Shown in pieces: positions 2 through 37,032 of a stretch of 37,032 nucleotides of DNA. Position numbers and translations under genes: made by a program. The stretch lies in the IMG/VR virus record IMGVR_UViG_3300047548_001872; one strand, 5' to 3'. The notes under the pieces were generated by a model. It did not search any database. It was not told the origin of the DNA and saw only the letters and a program-made list of their open reading frames with translations. Numbering within the stretch: position 1 is the stretch's first letter; the number at the start of each line of letters is the position of its first letter. Source of the stretch: a virus. Lineage: Duplodnaviria > Heunggongvirae > Uroviricota > Caudoviricetes.

Positions 2-1234
2 AAGAATGTCAGCTTGTTCTTGTGTGAATAATGCGAAGAATTCCTCCATACTGTCTTCAACTGTCTTCACGGTTTGTGATTGAACAGCATTGTAAGCTAA
101 CCCTATTGGTGCTGGTGTAAATGACACATCTGCATCTGATTCAAAAGTTAGTGATTTCGGGTCTTTTGCCTTGATGCTTCTGAACACATTGTAAGTCTTT
201 TGAACCGACAACATTAAACGAATAGATACAAAGGCTTTGGCTGTGAATCCTTCTTCTTGAATTGCTTTTCTTAATTTTGTTAAATACAAAAAGATAAATG
301 CCCATTTTTGGTTCATGATGTTTTCCCATTCGAATTTTTCATCAACTACCAACTTATAGGTAGAACCTACAAATCGGTCTTGCAAAGACAAGTCTTGTTT
401 AAAGTTTGCCTCGTACTCAGTATCTTTAGTGTTCAATAAGCTATTACCCGTGGCAATGATAAAACACTCTCCTCTACTAATGATGTCGCCTTTTGCATTT
501 TGAATTGTTTTTGGCGTTCCATCATCCTCGAATTCTCCAATAGTGGCTAAAACAGAGTTTAAAATACCTGCCGTGTTTGGGTCAAGTTTTGGCAACTCAT
601 CCAACAACAAAATACAACCTTTTCCCATAGGCGTTCCATCAGCATTAAGATTTCCATATGCACGGATAACCTTACCTTCTTGATAACCATCAATAGTTTG
701 CCCTCCAATCAACTCTAATGCTGAAGTAAATTGGTTGCAATTAACGGTGATTACATTCCAACCCAAGAAAGACTTGAGTGTGTTTGTTGCGATGTACGTT
801 TTTCCAGTACCTGCTCCTCCATACAAATAGACGTTATTTCTCGCCAACAAATCACTTAAAATCTTTTGAACGATAGGTCTTGTTACAGATGGGCTTAAAG
901 TTGTTTTTACCGTCTTTGTTGTAGCCCCTTGCTTTATGGTTAGACTAATTGAAGCAGGTTGATTTGACAACATTTGCTTAATTGATTCATCTAAGTTTTC
1001 AAACTTGATTTTCTCGGTCTCTAACTCTTCACGAATGATTCTTTTGAGTTCTTTTTCGTCAAGATTCATTCCTTGATTTCTATTGGCAAGCAATTGCGAA
1101 AGCTGTATCATTTTTTGAGCAACAACATCACCCTGAAACTCCTCTTGCATTTTTTGTTTTGCAAGCTGCTTAATTAATGGATTACCTGTATTTTCAGCAA
1201 TATCCATCAAATCTTTTTTTGTTACGTTTTCCAT
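2..1234 (-). CDS. AAA+ ATPase, MoxR/CobS/AAA_5-like (3' end runs off the window)
   Basis: Not in the ORF track; translated by hand. ATG at 1234 overlaps the upstream stop (TAATG) and the frame is open to the edge. Walker A YGGAGTGKT, Walker B ILLLDE, sensor-like IIATGN, arginine-finger-like LQDRF. Confidence 0.85.
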   Translation of the reverse strand, partial: MENVTKKDLMDIAENTGNPLIKQLAKQKMQEEFQGDVVAQKMIQLSQLLANRNQGMNLDEKELKRIIREELETEKIKFENLDESIKQMLSNQPASISLTIKQGATTKTVKTTLSPSVTRPIVQKILSDLLARNNVYLYGGAGTGKTYIATNTLKSFLGWNVITVNCNQFTSALELIGGQTIDGYQEGKVIRAYGNLNADGTPMGKGCILLLDELPKLDPNTAGILNSVLATIGEFEDDGTPKTIQNAKGDIISRGECFIIATGNSLLNTKDTEYEANFKQDLSLQDRFVGSTYKLVVDEKFEWENIMNQKWAFIFLYLTKLRKAIQEEGFTAKAFVSIRLMLSVQKTYNVFRSIKAKDPKSLTFESDADVSFTPAPIGLAYNAVQSQTVKTVEDSMEEFFALFTQEQADIL

Positions 1235-7353: not shown

Positions 7354-7893
7354 TTAAACGTGATTCCAAATTTTATTTAACAAAATTAAACTAATTAGTG
7401 TCGAATCAACATTGTATATTTTAGCAATCTCTTTCAATGTTTTTGTTCTACCAATTCTTCTTATTTCTAAAACTTGAATTTCGGTTAGTTTTGACATTCC
7501 GTGTTCAGAACCTTTTTGCGGTATTTTTAAATTATTTTTTAAAGAATGTACAACATTTTCAGATGAAGTTACCCACTCTAAATTGCCTACCCAATTGTCA
7601 TCTTTTATTCCATTTATATGGTTTACTTGTGGTTTATAAAATGGATTATCTATAAATTCAGCAGCCACTAATCTATGTGAAGCAAAAGATTTCTCAACTC
7701 CATTTTTAGATAGTTTGTACTTTAAATAACCATCTTGGTTTTTAAATGGAATCAAAATTCTTTCTTTTTTATTTAGAAAGACCCCCTTTCTGGATTCAAC
7801 TATACGAGCTATAGATTTTATCCTACCAATGTTTGAAACTTGGTAATGACCTTCATATCCCTTAATATCTCTCCATTCCTCAATTCTTTCCAT
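7354..7893 (-). CDS. NUMOD4-HNH homing endonuclease
   Basis: EEWRDIKGYEGHYQVSNIGRIKS (NUMOD4); HRLVA..F..QVNHINGIKDDNWVGNLEWVT..EN (HNH); C-terminal HTH-like tail. Confidence 0.92.
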   Translation of the reverse strand: MERIEEWRDIKGYEGHYQVSNIGRIKSIARIVESRKGVFLNKKERILIPFKNQDGYLKYKLSKNGVEKSFASHRLVAAEFIDNPFYKPQVNHINGIKDDNWVGNLEWVTSSENVVHSLKNNLKIPQKGSEHGMSKLTEIQVLEIRRIGRTKTLKEIAKIYNVDSTLISLILLNKIWNHV

Positions 7894-7948: not shown

Positions 7949-8884
7949 TTACCACTTAAACAACAATCTAACATAGTCAGGACAACAAGGCGTTACATCC
8001 CCTCCGTTTTCCATTAATTTTAATTGGTTGATAGGTACGCCTAATTTAGAGTAATTCCTGTTTTTAGGCAGCTTCATACCTCCTCTTTCAATGATTTCGT
8101 ACTTATCGTTTGAACCATCGATAACCATGTACCCATCAATATCTTCCTTGAGTTTATTAAAAGCAGACTTCCCTTTGGCAAAAAAATCATCAATAACTGC
8201 CATTGGCACAAATCGACCACTTTTTTTGTAACGCTCTAAGGCTCTTTGCTTGATAGTTGCTTCAGGAACTTTGTCCATGTAAACAATAAATATTTTATAC
8301 CCCAACTCTTTTAGCAATTTAACCAAAGGCTCATAGCTCTTAACGCTATTCATAGTGCCATCATAAATGATGTCATACTTACAGGGAATGCCAATAACTC
8401 TATCTGACAAAAGCGTATTGACAATATCCTTTGTCTCTAAATGCGTAGAGGTAGCGTTCCAACCCTTGTATTCGGGTAATTTTGCTCTGATTTCGTCGGC
8501 ATCTACTCTTAGAATATCTTCTTCAAGAAGATAAGGAGCATACTTTTTTAAGAAAGTACTTTTGCCACTTGCTGGACTCCCACCCATAAGTATGGCTATT
8601 GGCTTGTCGTTTTCAACGCAAATCAAGTCTTTTTTAAATCCATCGATTATGGTTTGGTGAAATTTAGTTCTTTCAGGGGTGTATTTCCCCGTAGATTCAT
8701 TGAAGTATTTTGATTTAGTTTGAGGAAGATTCTCGGCATAGTCAGTTAAGGCTTTGATTGCCTCATCATCAATTCTTCTCTCTCCATTTTTGTCGTATAT
8801 TTTATCTCGAACTTGCTTTGGTATAGAAGTATCAATAGCACCGCCATTCTCGTAGAACTCGGAATAATTGATTTTGTTTTTCAT
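7949..8884 (-). CDS. Zeta-toxin-family P-loop kinase
   Basis: ILMGGSPASGKST, RVDADEIRAKLPEY, IIYDGTM, GYKIFIVYM, RALERYKKSGRFVP. Confidence 0.85.
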   Translation of the reverse strand: MKNKINYSEFYENGGAIDTSIPKQVRDKIYDKNGERRIDDEAIKALTDYAENLPQTKSKYFNESTGKYTPERTKFHQTIIDGFKKDLICVENDKPIAILMGGSPASGKSTFLKKYAPYLLEEDILRVDADEIRAKLPEYKGWNATSTHLETKDIVNTLLSDRVIGIPCKYDIIYDGTMNSVKSYEPLVKLLKELGYKIFIVYMDKVPEATIKQRALERYKKSGRFVPMAVIDDFFAKGKSAFNKLKEDIDGYMVIDGSNDKYEIIERGGMKLPKNRNYSKLGVPINQLKLMENGGDVTPCCPDYVRLLFKW

Positions 8885-13093: not shown

Positions 13094-13740
13094 TTTTTTC
13101 TAATTACAAAACAATTTCCTTCTTTCAATTCACTTGGATATGCCCCTAAATTGTTTTCGAGAGTGCCAATAACTTCATAATCATCAAGGGTCAGAAGCAA
13201 TTCGTTAACGACTTTCTTTACATCAGGACTATGGATGCTATCATTGTAATCGTCAAAAACGATGTAACCCCCAGACTTAACCAAATCAGAGTACATAACA
13301 AAGTCAGCCATTACCCCTTCAAAAGAATGGTCTCCGTCTATAAATAGAACATCAATTCTATTTGAATAACCTAAAACACTTGAATTGCTAAGTGCCTCAA
13401 TTACTTGATTCTTGGTTGCAATTTCTCGTGAATTACCCTGAATATATTTATAATAATTATTATTATTTTTATACTTTATTACATTTTCTAATACTTCTAC
13501 TTTTGGTATGGGTTCTCCTAAGTCAATGCTTATGACGGTTGTGTTTGACCTTTGCAGCATTAAACAAGAACTTCCACCTGCGTATGCTCCTATTTCAACG
13601 TAGTTTATAGGCTTTTCTCCAAAGCTTTCGGCTATATCAAAAAGGATGTGGTAATGATGGTGAAAAGTTGGCAAATTTGAAGAAATGCCTCTAACCAAGT
13701 CAAGTGATTTTTGGGTCGGTTTTATTGATTGTTTGCTCAT
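13090..13740 (-). CDS. Class I SAM-dependent methyltransferase (Methyltransf_24-like)
   Basis: YVEIGAYAGGS; IDVLFIDGDHSFEGV..D..LVKSGGYIVFDDY. Start at 13740 by ATGA overlap. Confidence 0.88.
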   Translation of the reverse strand: MSKQSIKPTQKSLDLVRGISSNLPTFHHHYHILFDIAESFGEKPINYVEIGAYAGGSSCLMLQRSNTTVISIDLGEPIPKVEVLENVIKYKNNNNYYKYIQGNSREIATKNQVIEALSNSSVLGYSNRIDVLFIDGDHSFEGVMADFVMYSDLVKSGGYIVFDDYNDSIHSPDVKKVVNELLLTLDDYEVIGTLENNLGAYPSELKEGNCFVIRKK

Positions 13741-14240
13741 TTTTTTAAATCGTTTTTTGTTTTTATTTTGTGGTGTTCTTCGCAAAGATACTGGTAGTTC
13801 GACAACCAACAACCACCACCTCCTTTGTGTACTGGAATAATGTGGTCTTTATGTATTGCTGAATAGCTTAATCCGTTCTTCATCATCTTGTACTCATCGG
13901 TTAAACCGCACTCAATACATGCAACTACACCATGATATAATTTTAAATAACTTGAAATTACTTCTGAATAGCCATTGATTATTGCCCAAATAGCTTGAGC
14001 AAAATATTTACACTCATCATTTGCCCAACGCTTTTTTTTGCCTTCCAATTTAGCACCGCAACCACAAGCACATGTATTTTCAATATTAGGGAACATTTCA
14101 ATAATTGACACTCCTTGAACTCTCAAGTAAGGATTAATTTTAATCCTATCGTAAATTGGTTTTGGGTCAAAAAAAAGAACTCTCTTTTGATAGTCCTTAC
14201 ATTCACGAACTTCCTTAATAGATAATTGATTATACAACAT
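13737..14240 (-). CDS. HNH endonuclease (zinc-binding)
   Basis: CIECG..HKDHIIPVHKGGG..NYQYLCEEHHKIKT; start uncertain. Confidence 0.8.
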   Translation of the reverse strand: MLYNQLSIKEVRECKDYQKRVLFFDPKPIYDRIKINPYLRVQGVSIIEMFPNIENTCACGCGAKLEGKKKRWANDECKYFAQAIWAIINGYSEVISSYLKLYHGVVACIECGLTDEYKMMKNGLSYSAIHKDHIIPVHKGGGGCWLSNYQYLCEEHHKIKTKNDLKK

Positions 14241-15771: not shown

Positions 15772-16098
15772 TCAACCAGTGCTTTCTATAAATTCAATGC
15801 TTTTTTTACTAATTTTAAGAGGGCTTGGAAACGACTTGCTTCTTGCTCTATGTGTATAGACAAAAAAACCTTCTTTATCTGCACCCATAGAACACCCGTT
15901 TATCTTGGAAGATATTTTAAGCATCCCCGAAGGCTTTGTTAGACCAAAAACAGAACCATTGTTATATCTACTTGAAGAAGTAGCATATTTGAGTATTTCT
16001 TCTTTCATTTTAGAAGATAACTTTCGGCTTCCCTTAATTTGTTTTATAACATCAGGTTTTTGCTGACCTAAATTTGATTTTGCTTTCATTGTTTCCAA
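15772..16098 (-). CDS. Basic hypothetical protein
   Basis: 108-aa ORF coupled to neighbours. Confidence 0.55.
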   Translation of the reverse strand: METMKAKSNLGQQKPDVIKQIKGSRKLSSKMKEEILKYATSSSRYNNGSVFGLTKPSGMLKISSKINGCSMGADKEGFFVYTHRARSKSFPSPLKISKKSIEFIESTG

Positions 16099-16765
16099 AG
16101 TTTAAATTTGCTTAAATCAGGATAAGGCAACTCCAAATCCTCGTTATGCTTCTTACTCCCATCAGGATTATAAAATTGGTTCATCAACAACAAGCCTCTT
16201 GTAGCTAATTCAGGCATCATATAAAAGTTCCAACCAATAACTGGGTTGTCGTCAAAGTTGTCGTCGTGATAACTACACTCGCTTCTTCCGCTAAAACGGG
16301 CTTTTTTAGCCATTTGTAGGCTTCTTCGTCATCAAGTAGTATTGCGCCTCCTTTTGATAGCTTAAAATGCTTGTATGCTCCCGTAAAGGAAATACACATC
16401 ATTGATTCAGGAATGTACATATCTGCTGTAAATCGAAGTGCGCTATCCCAAACGTTTGTAGGTGTTAATTGATACGCCCCTTTTATGGTTTCGCCTTGAA
16501 CTTCGGTAAAATTAACCTTGCACCCAGCGTGAATGACTTCGCAAGGTACAGAGGGATAAGTTCTTTGCGGAACATCGACGATTGGCTTTAATTCCAAAAG
16601 ACTTGGGTAATCATTTAATTTTTTATGCTCTTTCATTTTCCAATAAGTCAAACAAAGAAACAAAGCATTACTTTGATTGTCCACGCACACAACGTATGGT
16701 GCGCCTGTGTATTTTGCCAATTCTTTCTCGAATTCAGCCGTAGTTTTATGTACTCCTTGTGCCAT
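16086..16765 (-). CDS. DegT/DnrJ/EryC1/StrS-family aminotransferase, split by a -1 frameshift at 16301-16307
   Basis: N-part EFEKELAKYTGAPY..NALFLCL..VWDSA..CISFTGAYKHFKLSKGGAILLDD; C-part ARFSGR..GWNFYMMPELATRGL in the -1 frame; junction CTA AAA AAG. Confidence 0.8.
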
Positions 16766-32744: not shown

Positions 32745-33110
32745 TTAATTTTCTTGAATTTCTATGATTCCGTTTTGATACTCTATTTTTTTATAGGTTA
32801 TTGATATTGTCTTTATTTTGCCTTCACCTTTTTGAATATGAATTACACCATATACCTTTGCATTTTCTAATTCCAATACTACAAAACCTTCTTTCAACTG
32901 TTTAGCCTCATACCTTTTAACTAACAAGGCAATAACCTCGTCTTTTATGTTTGGTCTTGCTTTAGAATTACAAAAGATAATGGTTGAATCTTTTTTTGTG
33001 TAGACTTGCTCTATACCCTCGTTCCCGTGTTTATAGTAAACAATTTTCTGAGAGCATATTGTACAACACCATAAAAACAAGGATGTAGTATGTATTAGCT
33101 TGATTTTCAT
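32745..33110 (-). CDS. Putative secreted hypothetical protein
   Basis: N-terminal signal-like segment; own promoter. Confidence 0.6.
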   Translation of the reverse strand: MKIKLIHTTSLFLWCCTICSQKIVYYKHGNEGIEQVYTKKDSTIIFCNSKARPNIKDEVIALLVKRYEAKQLKEGFVVLELENAKVYGVIHIQKGEGKIKTISITYKKIEYQNGIIEIQEN

Positions 33111-33136
33111 TTTTTCGGGTTAAGTGTTTGTCAATA

Positions 33137-33144
33137 CAAATATA
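33137..33144 (-). promoter_or_regulatory. Early-type -7 element with conserved leader
   Basis: TATATTTG then TATTGACAAACACTTAA. Confidence 0.7.
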
Positions 33145-33191
33145 AAATAAAAAATATTATAAATAATAATTTTTTACTAAAAAAATCAAAT

Positions 33192-33218
33192 AAAAAAGCC
33201 CCGATAAGTATGGGGCTT
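33192..33218 (-). terminator. Intrinsic terminator
   Basis: AAGCCCC-N9-GGGGCTT followed by a T-run on the minus strand. Confidence 0.8.
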
Positions 33219-33248
33219 GTTGTTAGTGGTATGCACCTTGTTTTGGGT

Positions 33249-33312
33249 GTATAAGTCTGATAAATGGTTGTATAAGTCGGTAAAATATGCTCTTAGCGAT
33301 GAGTTAGCACTT
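33249..33312 (+). other. Possible attI-like recombination site
   Basis: GTATAAGTC direct repeats at 33249 and 33270; GTTAGCACTT at 33303 is the exact inverted complement of AAGTGCTAAC at 34104. Confidence 0.3.
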
Positions 33313-33733
33313 ATTTTCGAGAACGAGTGCTGATATAAAGTTTGTCTTTTCTAATTATACAAACATCATTCTCAAAAGGTTTGTCAAAATCCCACTTTTC
33401 TAAATAGGACTTTGATATTTTTAATACCTCACACCAAGCATTAAAAAGCAAAGTCAAATCACCATAATAGAAATTAAAACAACTTTCCTTAAATTCTAAA
33501 TGATATATTTTTCTTTTTTTATTTAAACTATCTAAATAATCATCAATTTCTTCTTGAGATGGTTTTTCAGAAAAATAACCTTTATAATAAAGTTCTTTAA
33601 TTTGATTTTCGGTCAAATCACCACCTTTTAAAGTAGTGTTTTCTTTTACTTTAGTTCCATTTTGTTTAATTGTATATGTAACAGGATATAGTAAATTTTC
33701 TTCTACTAACAAAGCAAAGTTTATATATTTCAT
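33311..33733 (-). CDS. Hypothetical protein (putative cassette A)
   Basis: 140-aa ORF; stop codon abuts GTGCTAAC. Confidence 0.62.
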   Translation of the reverse strand: MKYINFALLVEENLLYPVTYTIKQNGTKVKENTTLKGGDLTENQIKELYYKGYFSEKPSQEEIDDYLDSLNKKRKIYHLEFKESCFNFYYGDLTLLFNAWCEVLKISKSYLEKWDFDKPFENDVCIIRKDKLYISTRSRK

Positions 33734-33737
33734 TTTA

Positions 33738-33995
33738 TTAAAAATTTAAAGATTTTACAAAACACCATTTTTTCATTAACTTTTTAGATAATAAATTATT
33801 TTTCCAGGTTTTTCCGTTTTTTACAACTCTATTTTTATCTACTAAAAAATTAGCTTTAGCCGTTTCAATTTCGTTATCTTTAAAAACAACAACACCGTTT
33901 GCAATTTCATCATCATAGTATTTCATTAGATAAATACCTTTAAATCGTAAATTTCCGTTTACAGTTTTATTAAAAGAATAAATGTGAGCTTCCAT
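33738..33995 (-). CDS. Hypothetical protein (putative cassette A)
   Basis: 85-aa ORF behind the promoter at 34024. Confidence 0.58.
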   Translation of the reverse strand: MEAHIYSFNKTVNGNLRFKGIYLMKYYDDEIANGVVVFKDNEIETAKANFLVDKNRVVKNGKTWKNNLLSKKLMKKWCFVKSLNF

Positions 33996-34023
33996 ATTTT
34001 TATAGTTTTAAAATTTATATATG

Positions 34024-34031
34024 CAAATATA
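34024..34031 (-). promoter_or_regulatory. -7 promoter element TATATTTG
   Basis: In the AT-rich gap 28 nt upstream of ATG 33995. Confidence 0.6.
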
Positions 34032-34106
34032 AACATTAATATTATCAACTTCCAAATAAAAATGCAATTATTATAAATAAAAATATCATTTAATAATAAA
34101 AACAAG

Positions 34107-34237
34107 TGCTAACACTCGCTTTGTGCTATTGCAAATCTTGTGGTTTAATCACATTTACGTTTCGCATCACGTTTATTTGTAACCGAAAATACTCGTTTAC
34201 GAACTTTGCAACAGCACAAAGCGTGAAACCGTTATAG
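34107..34237 (+). mobile_element. attC-like site 1
   Basis: TGCTAAC-act-CGCTTTGTGCT.TTGCAAA ... TTTGCAA.AGCACAAAGCG-tgaaacc-GTTATAG. Confidence 0.72.
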
Positions 34238-34267
34238 GTAATTGTTTTAAAAATTCCTACCGCACAG

Positions 34268-34480
34268 TTACGTTTTCAAATTGAAATTACTACCATCAAA
34301 TGTGAACCTATTGTTGTTGTCTATAGCATCGCGTAATTGACGTTTTGTTTCGATTTTTTGATATTCACCTTCATTGTTAATGAAATATTCAAAATGTGTT
34401 TCATCTAACCAATTTCTTCCAAACATCGGTCTGTCATCATCTACTGGTTCATCTAACCAGCTACTTCCAAATAGTGCCAT
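34268..34480 (-). CDS. Hypothetical protein (putative cassette B) with internal WLDE repeat
   Basis: FGSSWLDE / FGRNWLDE; flanked by 22-bp inverted repeats. Confidence 0.65.
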   Translation of the reverse strand: MALFGSSWLDEPVDDDRPMFGRNWLDETHFEYFINNEGEYQKIETKRQLRDAIDNNNRFTFDGSNFNLKT

Positions 34481-34525
34481 AACAATTTAGTTTTTAATGC
34501 CAACGCTAATTTTTAAAACAACTAC

Positions 34526-34618
34526 CTATAACATAGTATTGGCAAAATGCCACAGATAGTTTGTGCCTTGAATTTAAGTTTGTACTGGTGGCACTTCGCC
34601 AATACTCAACCGTTATGC
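34526..34618 (+). mobile_element. attC-like site 2
   Basis: CTATAAC-at-AGTATTGGC.aaaa.TGCCAC ... GTGGCA.cttc.GCCAATACT-caacc-GTTATGC. Confidence 0.75.
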
Positions 34619-34619
34619 C

Positions 34620-34835
34620 TCATTTTACCAAACGACATAAAACACTTGTTGCTTTATAATAATCGTTTAACCACCAAAAACCTTTGTCGAAATTTACTTT
34701 ACCTTTATAAATCATGCCGAATGTGTTTATGAATTCATATTCTGAATGCTCATTGAAGTATGAACTATCTCTATATAAGAAGCTCTCACTAACATCGGCT
34801 TTGCAAGATTGTTCTTGTTGGTCTAAATTGTTCAT
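34620..34835 (-). CDS. Hypothetical protein (putative cassette C), starting inside attC3
   Basis: MNNLDQQEQSCKADVSES: the CKADV codons form one arm and core box of attC3; stop TGA abuts GGCATAAC. Confidence 0.62.
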   Translation of the reverse strand: MNNLDQQEQSCKADVSESFLYRDSSYFNEHSEYEFINTFGMIYKGKVNFDKGFWWLNDYYKATSVLCRLVK

Positions 34836-34918
34836 TTTTTTGTATTTTATAGTTAGACAATAATTTTGAGGCTTGGTTATCGCTTAACCCAACCTTGCCA
34901 AGCCCCGAACCGTTACCA
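34787..34918 (+). mobile_element. attC-like site 3
   Basis: CACTAAC-atc-GGCTT.GCAAG ... CTTGC.AAGCC-ccgaacc-GTTACCA. Confidence 0.62.
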
Positions 34919-34924
34919 TACAAT

Positions 34925-35164
34925 TTAAAAAGCACCTACTTCTACAACATTAAAACAAATTTCTTCATAAACGGAACATAGACCTTCTAAGTCAGTTGGG
35001 TAATCGGGTGAGTTTTGCCAATCGATTTCGGCTTGTTTACTTTTGGGGGCTGTAAACTCAATCATCCCCTTTTTCACCGCTTCATATTCGTTTTCAGCGA
35101 CTACTTTAAAAAGTTTTAAATCATTCTCAAACATCGAGAGAATACCAACTACGTAATTTTTCAT
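34925..35164 (-). CDS. Hypothetical protein
   Basis: 79 aa; stop lies a few nt before the TGGTAAC box of attC3. Confidence 0.62.
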   Translation of the reverse strand: MKNYVVGILSMFENDLKLFKVVAENEYEAVKKGMIEFTAPKSKQAEIDWQNSPDYPTDLEGLCSVYEEICFNVVEVGAF

Positions 35165-35185
35165 ATCTTATTTCTTTAAACTGAT

Positions 35186-35347
35186 TTAAACTATTTTAGC
35201 TTCTAATTTTTTACGACGTGCTTCAATGAATTTTTGTTTAGATATACGTTGTTTGGCGATGAGTTTCAACTCGTCTAACAATTCCAATTGAAGTTGGACA
35301 AGAACAACTAATTTGTGGGATAGTTGGGATTTTCGGTTGGGTGTCAT
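35186..35347 (-). CDS. Small basic hypothetical protein (53 aa)
   Basis: Hand-translated MTPNRKSQLSHKLVV...KLEAKIV; ATGA overlap with the YopX-family stop. Confidence 0.55.
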   Translation of the reverse strand: MTPNRKSQLSHKLVVLVQLQLELLDELKLIAKQRISKQKFIEARRKKLEAKIV

Positions 35348-35793
35348 AGTCGTTCGGGATTTTCGTGGATGTTTCCTATAACTTCCATTTCTGACTGTAT
35401 TCGTGTACCATCTTGTTTTTTACCGTAATGACCCCACAAATTAAATCCAACTCCTTCAAAAGCATCAACTCCTTGAATACCGTAAGAAACTACAATTTTT
35501 TCATAGTCCCAAAAAACAACATCCCCCTCATAAATCTCCTTGCCGTTTTTATCGTGGAGGTCTATGAATTGACCCACAGATTCAGACTTTACGGATATAA
35601 AACCACCTAATGCTAAAAAATTATTCTCAATAATTGGATTTCCATTGTCGTCTTCTTCGCCAAAATCCCTTGTTCCAAAAAAGCAATAAGGCATAATATA
35701 AGGCATTTCTTTATTATTAAAAAGATACGCTAATTGACCATAAACCCATCCTTTACCGTCGGCTCTTAAACCTCTAAACTTAATTTCTCTCAT
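35344..35793 (-). CDS. YopX-family protein
   Basis: MREIKFRG..WVYG..VGQFIDLHDKNGKEIYEGDVV..EVIGNIHENPE. Confidence 0.92.
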   Translation of the reverse strand: MREIKFRGLRADGKGWVYGQLAYLFNNKEMPYIMPYCFFGTRDFGEEDDNGNPIIENNFLALGGFISVKSESVGQFIDLHDKNGKEIYEGDVVFWDYEKIVVSYGIQGVDAFEGVGFNLWGHYGKKQDGTRIQSEMEVIGNIHENPERL

Positions 35794-36575: not shown

Positions 36576-37032
36576 TTTTCATTTTCCCGTTATACTAAGT
36601 AAATGCTTGATAATTAGGAATCTAATTTCTGATTTTGGTTAATGAATATCCTTGGAAACCCTCCTAAATCCACCCTACACCCCTCTATTCCCGACAAAAT
36701 ACCTTTTCATTTTCCCGTTATACTAAGTAAATGCTTGATAATTAGGAATCTAATTTCTGATTTTTGTTTGGTAATTGGGTTAAAAGTGGGTGTTTTTGGC
36801 TGATTCCCTCTATTCCCGACAAAATTCCCTTTTCATTTTCCCGTTATACTAAGTAAATGCTTGATAATTAGGCATCTAATTTCTGATTTTGGTTTGTGAA
36901 TTTCCCCAAAACCCACCCTACACCCCTCTATTCCCTACAAAATTCCTTTTCATTTTCCCGTTATACTAAGTAAATGCTTGATAATTAGGAATCTAATTTC
37001 TGATTTTGGTTAATGAATATCCTTGGAAACCC
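36576..37032. repeat. Non-coding tandem array: ~90-bp conserved block plus ~28-40-bp variable segment (runs off the window)
   Basis: Core TTTTCATTTTCCCGTTATACTAAGTAAATGCTTGATAATTAGGAATCTAATTTCTGATTTT starts at 36576, 36704, 36830 and 36947 (periods 128, 126, 117). Confidence 0.92.

Follow-up and report, generated by a model that had tools for sequence, protein, structure and literature searches.

A probable integron-like cassette array with reversed genes in a tailed phage, and its relatives in Flavobacterium

Integrons are regarded as near-absent in Bacteroidota, and as dependent on an IntI-specific domain for the use of folded sites. Xer-dependent elements include the CTX-type phages, with a folded single-stranded attP, and the dif modules of Acinetobacter plasmids. 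Here we consider a locus in 37,032 nt of viral DNA (Caudoviricetes; IMG/VR record IMGVR_UViG_3300047548_001872), the whole of which is called the window below. At positions 33303-34921, three imperfect palindromes alternate with small open reading frames (ORFs) on the minus strand, and this region is likely to be an array of three cassettes that belongs to a site-specific, integron-like recombination system found in Bacteroidota and their phages. Judged from its predicted parts, it is integron-like in its working but is not a classical integron, as both the integrase and the orientation of the genes differ.

Several described systems come close to this locus. A survey with IntegronFinder 2.0 found integrons to be nearly absent from Bacteroidetes (PMC9024848). 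In phages, 17 attC clusters that have no integron integrase (CALINs) have been described, including one with two methyltransferases in the flavobacterial Polaribacter phage P12002L, and some of their sites recombined with IntI1; P12002L_attC1 is the sole tested site that lacked verified IntI1 junctions (Qi et al., 2023; PMC9892861). The feature that defines a CALIN, at least two close sites with no integrase nearby, is found in the window, provided that its sites count as attC-like. The promoter early stem-loops (PeSLs) of T4-type phages are promoter-plus-terminator motifs which recombine by homology (PMC2839356; PMC4122927). Phage CALINs aside, a literature search covering work other than the original Unahavirus genome papers found no paper on arrays of the present kind, their reversed orientation or an Xer-like recombinase that serves them, and the system is apparently undescribed and widespread in Bacteroidota and their phages.

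Sites and boxes of the window array

On the plus strand, all three sites (S1, S2 and S3; Table 1) read nnnnnnTAAC, three nucleotides, arm...arm, six to seven nucleotides ending in AACC, and GTTAnnnnnn, and they are packed into 810 bp. The palindromes, their shared layout and the alternating small ORFs had been picked out in an earlier reading of the letters alone (the original prediction), and they are present where it placed them. The motif AACCGTTA occurs exactly three times in the 37 kb, on the plus strand only and always inside 700 bp of the array. The arms of S1 and S2 are both 19 nt long, with 95% and 89% complementarity respectively, and S1 folds much better than its shuffles (z -4.1). 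All arm mismatches, one in S1 and two in S2, are A-C on the plus strand and G-T on the minus strand, and the minus strand is more stable by 2-3 kcal/mol in all three sites, which bears out the earlier claim that the coding strand folds best. The two boxes within one site are complementary in TAAC/GTTA only; the sites have this outer pair as well as an inner ATTGC/GCAAC pair, and both covary. At gathering thresholds, Rfam gave no match anywhere in the window.

Across the cassettes, the 10-nt flanking boxes are exact inverse complements in two of the three units, as in integron cassette junctions. Cassette 1 opens with GTTAGCACTT, the exact inverse complement of AAGTGCTAAC at the start of S1, and in cassette 2 the box GTTATAGGTA at the end of S1 is the inverse complement of TACCTATAAC at the start of S2. 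In cassette 2 the pairing extends, with one mismatch, as a 25-nt inverted repeat (24 matches, 96%) that includes both core boxes and encloses the 70-amino-acid ORF at 34268..34480 (ORF70), slightly longer than the 21/22 bp first reported for it. A fully paired stem with a circular unit recombining inside it would leave just such inverse-complement boxes, as integron cassettes show, and the paired boxes suggest a single stem halved by the recombination of a circular cassette.

A covariance-model comparison, the check envisaged when the array was first proposed, came out in favour of all three sites. The model (R1) was built from an alignment of 29 diverse sites of relatives and is specific to this family, not that of IntegronFinder; S1 and S3 were among its seeds, and S2 was not. 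The alignment has compensatory changes at 10 of 11 predicted stem pairs, and one G-U/G-T pair, within the inner GTTGC/GCAAT box, is kept in 28 of the 29 sites. In the window, R1 matched the seeds S3 and S1 at 87.1 and 79.9 bits and the non-seed S2 at 39.9 bits (E 8e-7), with nothing else below E 0.01. Two weaker minus-strand matches at 16047-16146 and 13713-13818 (16.8 and 17.8 bits, E 0.04-0.08) lie in a glycosyltransferase cluster; the former lies where two ORFs meet, contains a GTTGC box between its TAAC-G...T-GTTA ends, and may be a decayed site or a chance match.

Cassette exchange in relatives

Eight Unahavirus phages of Flavobacterium psychrophilum were compared (2A, 6H, 23T, 1H, FPSV-F7, D15, D17 and D35; L087-L094). 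These phages are at least 98.5% identical, yet the array region is shared only to 25-100% between them, and every one of the eight has 5-10 sites that follow this layout, their boxes chained. A site interior is always found with the same left box and left ORF, the right box differs among the phages, and an identical right box is found after unrelated sites; the exchanges unite sites that have only an 8-9-nt core in common. After a constant boundary (...ATCTATAC|GTTA) come five different cassettes, and phage D35 is equal to D17 with one additional unit, inserted exactly at this fixed boundary. In pairwise comparisons, homology blocks ended 4-5 nt past the start of GTTA in 17 of 40 cases and started 1-2 nt ahead of it in 17 of 37, which would place the crossover at the plus-strand right end of each site. 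Read from these comparisons, the predicted mobile unit is box, minus-strand ORF, box and site, with the site upstream of its co-travelling gene on the coding strand. S1 itself has an interior 84% identical to an intergenic site of phage 2A, with compensatory changes in the arms and unrelated flanking ORFs.

Two other ways of reading the unit were considered. Taking the minus strand as the integron 'top' strand, on which the ORFs would be canonical, was rejected, as site interiors stay with the left box and left ORF. An earlier companion idea, in which ORF 34620..34835 would gain a new N-terminus by recombination, is unsupported, since site and ORF travel together. As a separate observation, these near-identical temperate F. 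psychrophilum phages differ chiefly in the content and order of cassettes in an array of 3-5 kb, and one 265-nt cassette is present twice in each of 6H and 23T.

One cassette of the window itself was found elsewhere. An exact-protein look-up of ORF70 fetched a metagenome scaffold (L096) in which the protein is exact and the DNA, including S2, is identical over 116 of 116 nt through ...TCAACCGTTA and unrelated immediately past GTTA. In this scaffold, too, at least five cassettes are chained, through complementary boxes of 9-10 nt. On this match, window cassette 2 would occupy a different array in nature, with its junction at the core. The cassette order that the original prediction expected to vary does so in L096 and among the eight Unahavirus phages, and in both there are breakpoints at the GTTA core, in keeping with the G/TT breakpoints that it named. 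A further cassette of L096 (1404-1661, plus strand) holds an 85-amino-acid ORF that starts within its own site, its lipoprotein-type signal peptide being partly encoded by a hairpin arm and the GTTA box. The sequence of such a site is therefore constrained in both coding and structure, as it is for S3 and ORF 34620..34835, of which S3 covers the first ~14 codons.

Other searches gave less. No close relative of the window was found in phage records (megablast of the region) or in IMG/VR, and a distant blastn comparison with phage records gave a match restricted to the interior of S1. Relatives gathered by the YopX gene and a 225-amino-acid ORF are only 30-50% identical, and one of these 82 loci (L010) has a chained pair of sites. 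For ORF71, ORF79 and ORF125, every contig found by exact-protein look-up was collinear with the window. Two Logan contigs seem to begin or end at cassette junctions, which is a hint only.

The wider family was sampled through 120 IMG/VR loci fetched by a 17-base pattern from one arm subfamily; the box rule and the orientation of ORFs lie outside this pattern. In about 75 of these loci, complementary boxes link the sites into chains, whereas shuffles gave 4 links, and mononucleotide shuffles of ~1 Mb of DNA gave 1-4 site-plus-box links where real arrays gave hundreds. Among 241 chained cassettes of other phages (median body 412 nt), the ORF is antisense to the top strand of the site in 201 and sense in 12, with no clear ORF in 28; the reversed orientation claimed for the window hence recurs in 201 of 213 oriented cassettes. 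The inverse-complement boxes lie 200-1300 nt apart and their perfect complementarity never exceeds 10 nt, since in 134 of 143 cassettes position 11 is A opposite C, which makes a G-T wobble of the coding strand. The window sites share what defines this family, namely TAAC, 1-3 nt, arm...arm, (R)AAC(C) and GTTA on the non-coding strand, chained 10-nt boxes, and an inner GTTGC/GCAAT box with a coding-strand G-T wobble.

Elsewhere, orphan N6/N4 DNA methyltransferases are the commonest cargo (in 28 of 53 loci, with as many as five in one array), followed by C5 methyltransferases; a cargo dominated by orphan methyltransferases is what would be expected of phage counter-defence genes under frequent exchange. 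S1-like sites of 71-79% identity are present in 52 of 301 Flavobacterium genomes, some of them within chromosomal arrays, which suggests Flavobacterium as the host genus and a common pool of sites. The loop of S1-type sites (34128-34200 in the window; also in L340-L345) is 71-84% conserved from phage to Flavobacterium chromosome, and holds an inner 8-bp hairpin, GTAACCGA/TCGGTTAC.

Recombinase, mechanism and alternatives

In the IMG/VR record IMGVR_UViG_3300043411_001575, an array that extends over at least 8 kb (L217) has the gene of a 298-amino-acid Xer-like recombinase starting 20 nt away from its fixed boundary. The protein scores 206 bits on the XerA model, and its best solved relative is XerA 4a8e. 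On the IntI model TIGR02249 it reaches 154.8 bits against a cut-off of 265, in two stretches, with ~27 positions skipped at the IntI insertion. The array-linked recombinase is predicted from this to be Xer-like and to be without the IntI-specific insertion. Homologues with 38-50% identity lie on the fixed-boundary side in 9 of 9 orientable loci, as they do in 12 of 12 further Flavobacterium genomes for which both coordinates were listed.

A survey of genomes from 61 Flavobacterium species found matches to the model in 52, with more than 50 in some, and a ~300-amino-acid Xer-like recombinase in 37, of which 36 have sites; every genome in this sample with at least 25 sites has the recombinase. 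Five array-bearing genomes each have one strong recombinase copy together with one or two weaker XerC/D-like matches. The best candidate for the cassette enzyme in the window phage would be a ~300-amino-acid Xer-like tyrosine recombinase supplied by the host, and the enzyme is probably not of the IntI type. The original prediction of an integrase acting in trans stays plausible, with none found in the window and a dedicated recombinase adjoining the Flavobacterium arrays, but its choice of an IntI-type enzyme is improbable. The integrase of the Unahavirus phages is not favoured as the cassette recombinase; it is of the arm-binding phage type, reaches 45 bits on TIGR02249, and lies several kb from the array in most genomes, adjoining it only in the shortened FPSV-F7.

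The array of IMGVR_UViG_3300043411_001575 is very long (L217, L212 and L145, ~79-117 kb of a 169.7-kb contig), and the record may represent either a giant phage or part of a chromosome. The segment L217 exceeds 8 kb (~107.7-115.7 kb) and probably runs on into L212 (98-108 kb), with a further arrayed segment in L145 (79-85 kb); at least five N6/N4 methyltransferase cassettes lie in one stretch.

These findings can be joined in a mechanism. On the coding (minus) strand, the mobile unit would be an imperfect palindrome of 90-130 nt followed by its ORF or ORFs, flanked by boxes nnnnnnTAAC/GTTAnnnnnn. The 10-nt boxes would be the two halves of one stem, split as a circular cassette recombines within the AAC/GTT core. 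The crossover would fall at the end of the site distal to its own ORF, which is the right end on the plus strand, (R)AAC(C)|GTTA, and a crossover there would allow cassettes to be excised, inserted at the fixed boundary at 33303, or swapped between arrays. The substrate may be a single-stranded hairpin folded on the coding strand, with conserved G-T wobbles, rather than A-C, selecting the strand as extrahelical bases do in attC. If the array is active in the present phage, its host would supply the Xer-like recombinase, which is encoded at the fixed end of chromosomal arrays in Flavobacterium and of some phage arrays.

Several observations weigh against an integron-like array. The boxes of cassette 3, GTTATGCCTC and ..CTCACTAAC, agree in the 4-nt core only, the arms of S3 are merely 11 nt long (10 of 11 pairing), and S3 folds no better than shuffles (z -0.5 to -0.7); the break in the boxes and the weak fold may mean that part of the array has decayed or become fixed. 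No recombinase was detected in the 37 kb, whether by Pfam scans of the larger ORFs for tyrosine recombinases or by tblastn. Two array-bearing viral genomes rated 100% complete are without any PF00589 recombinase, and activity in phages consequently depends on a putative host enzyme. The array-linked recombinase is without the insertion that IntI needs for folded attC sites. Prevalence among the 120 IMG/VR loci is biased by the pattern used to fetch them. Lastly, the conserved wobbles are G-U-compatible on the coding strand, as a pure RNA hairpin would show.

This last point belongs to an alternative in which the palindromes are solely RNA elements (processing sites, stabilisers or attenuators on a polycistronic transcript) and the shuffling is a by-product of ordinary recombination. 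We consider it unlikely. The better-folding strand is the transcribed one, and the sites lie upstream of ORFs and in some cases enclose a start codon (S3; L096), all of which an RNA element would explain. It leaves unexplained the exact core breakpoints between unrelated sites, the 10-nt inverse-complement boxes 200-1300 nt apart and the fixed position of a dedicated recombinase gene; on the same three grounds, the RNA-only role that the original prediction had named as its refutation is countered. A dual role as recombination site and RNA element is possible.

Homologous or microhomology-mediated shuffling between repeated regulatory motifs, as with the PeSLs, seems to us a little less likely still. 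PeSLs lie on either side of small early genes that are not essential, bring about modular exchange and give rise to mini-circles (PMC2839356), and several sites in one array can be near-identical, such as the Sg copies of the Unahavirus phages. The sites actually exchanged, however, have only an 8-9-nt core in common, the rule of inverse-complement boxes is not expected of homologous exchange, and a recombinase is linked to the arrays. A PeSL joins a strong early promoter of the sigma-70 type to a terminator stem-loop; in 32900-35400, 12 promoter-like sites were counted where shuffles gave 13.0 (with the Escherichia coli consensus, not that of Bacteroidota), and no T-tract follows the stems of the sites.

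There is also little room for a classical CALIN, in which the host would recombine true attC sites with an integron integrase of the IntI type, and we hold this to be very unlikely. The AAC/GTT core, the palindromic sites and the integron-type cassette junctions fit it, but beyond the 4-nt core the sites do not keep the 7-nt attC consensus (RYYYAAC/GTTRRRY), the spacing between R and L boxes is 14-18 nt here as against ~5-6 nt in attC, the ORFs are reversed, and the linked recombinase falls short of the TIGR02249 cut-off with its match split at the IntI insertion. The published phage CALINs include sites that recombined with IntI1, but the one published site of the same layout, P12002L_attC1, alone gave no IntI1 junctions (PMC9892861). 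The near-zero count of IntegronFinder 2.0 in Bacteroidetes (PMC9024848) likewise stands against sites in 52 of 61 Flavobacterium genomes. Miniature transposable hairpins inserted between genes, like the ends of repetitive extragenic palindromes (REP/RAYT) or of IS200/IS605, would account for imperfect palindromes, a conserved tetranucleotide beside the stem and many copies per genome, but are highly improbable given the head-to-tail arrangement with single ORFs and chained boxes, flanks that co-vary with the neighbouring cassettes, no target duplications shown, and no HUH/Y1 transposase among the commonest neighbouring gene clusters.

With an integron-like array as the preferred reading, we lean slightly towards a broader one, in which integron-type gene capture would have a second lineage, independent of IntI and made up of these arrays. 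An Xer-like recombinase would run this lineage, which would be pervasive in chromosomes of Flavobacterium and other Bacteroidota and shared with their phages; the phages would have recombinase-less arrays and use the host enzyme to swap counter-defence and other accessory genes, with the hairpin doubling as an RNA element. If integron-like exchange by such an enzyme holds, it would explain how accessory genes change between otherwise identical phages, among them the temperate 6H-type phages that infect the fish pathogen F. psychrophilum. It would also provide a direct channel of gene exchange between phage and host arrays, and a natural test of the minimal needs of a tyrosine recombinase for hairpin substrates.

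Window features and comparison with known systems

The features of the array are listed in Table 1. The cargo ORFs of the window cassettes have no informative match in Pfam or PHROG, and at the DNA level none of the cargo was found in 301 Flavobacterium genomes, where S1-like sites alone matched.

Table 1. Features of the cassette array in the window, with positions counted from its first letter.
Feature	Position	Strand	Evidence and remarks
Fixed left boundary of array (attI-like junction); box GTTAGCACTT opening cassette 1	33303..33312	+	Exact inverse complement of 34104-34113; no hairpin to the left; analogous Unahavirus boundaries precede different cassettes
Cassette 1 cargo, 140-amino-acid ORF, function unknown	33311..33733	-	ORF list; no Pfam family; weak match to PHROG 10608 (function unknown)
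Cassette 1 cargo, 85-amino-acid ORF, function unknown	33738..33995	-	ORF list; Pfam and PHROG uninformative
S1 with two 10-nt boxes; core TAAC 34110-34113, GTTA 34231-34234 (core to core 34110-34234); predicted to move with cassette 1	34104..34240	-	19-nt arms; z -4.1; R1 79.9 bits (seed)
Cassette 2 start: box GTTATAGGTA, then A facing C (G-T on the minus strand) and further pairing; left arm of 25-nt repeat	34231..34255	+	96% inverted repeat
Cassette 2 cargo, 70-amino-acid ORF (ORF70), function unknown	34268..34480	-	Exact protein and S2 in a different array, scaffold L096
Cassette 2 body end: right arm of 25-nt repeat, terminating in box TACCTATAAC	34508..34532	+	Repeat and box complementarity
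S2 with boxes; core 34529-34615; predicted to move with cassette 2	34523..34621	-	19-nt arms, two A-C/G-T positions; R1 39.9 bits, E 8e-7, not seed; L096 homology stops right after GTTA
Cassette 3 cargo, 71-amino-acid ORF, first ~14 codons within S3	34620..34835	-	ORF list; no Pfam family
S3 with boxes; core 34790-34915; last site; right box GTTACCATAC without downstream partner	34784..34921	-	11-nt arms, 10/11; R1 87.1 bits (seed); weak fold; cassette 3 boxes complementary in core only
Hairpin just past the fixed boundary, read as intrinsic terminator for the minus strand	33196..33218	-	Stem in sequence; terminator scan called the stem on + only; minus-strand T run read by eye

Elsewhere in the window, a homing-type HNH endonuclease that carries a NUMOD4 motif (7354..7893) lies beside a zeta-toxin-family kinase (7949..8884), both on the minus strand and amid structural genes. 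Tandem units of 65-86 nt with 95-100% identity occupy 36704-37032, upstream of the small-ORF region; the window ends within this repeat, which was seen as repeated matches to contig L095. At its other end, the window starts inside an AAA_5/MoxR-type ATPase gene (2-1234, minus strand); it is therefore likely that the record covers only part of a larger genome, whose remainder may hold a recombinase.

Compared with classical and sedentary chromosomal integrons, the arrays are alike in having promoterless-looking single-gene cassettes in tandem, with tens of cassettes in chromosomal arrays, and imperfectly palindromic sites in which an outer (R) pair of boxes and an inner (L) pair accompany an AAC/GTT core; on the other strand the inner box reads ATTGC...GCAAC, an analogue of attC L boxes. 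As in those integrons, the crossover would lie at a single end of the site, and a cassette accordingly opens with bases complementary to those that open its own site (in cassettes 1 and 2 here, and in cassette 3 for the core only). New cassettes appear at a fixed boundary, with a tyrosine recombinase gene beside it in linked arrays, and one strand folds better. They differ in that the ORFs are on the folding strand, with each site upstream of its co-travelling gene, where the classical order is a top-strand ORF and then attC. The boxes share only GTTA/TAAC with GTTRRRY/RYYYAAC and have the wider R-L spacing, the strand bias comes from conserved A-C/G-T positions and not from extrahelical bases, and the recombinase is predicted to be Xer-like without the IntI insertion.

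The phage CALINs are similar as integrase-less clusters of attC-like sites in virulent and temperate phages with methyltransferase cargo, and the layout of P12002L_attC1, TAAC-G...T-GTTA, is that of the window sites; in the accessible part of that study, the sites are treated as classical attC for IntI1, and Flavobacterium phages, a reversed orientation and an Xer-like recombinase are not described (Qi et al., 2023). In PeSL cassettes, too, stem-loops bracket small accessory genes in hyperplastic phage regions, with gain, loss and mini-circles as features, whereas here a 4-nt core sets the site-specific junctions, the boxes are inverse complements and a recombinase is linked. Xer-dependent elements resemble these arrays in that Xer-family recombinases move discrete modules through hairpin-folded or short paired sites. 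The arrays differ from them in that no 28-bp dif-like site is evident, and in having palindromes of 90-130 nt, long tandem arrays and a dedicated recombinase paralogue distinct from the XerC/D-like matches. Compared with the integron, the same cassette logic would operate with a different recombinase and reversed genes, in most of the sampled Flavobacterium genomes and many of their phages.

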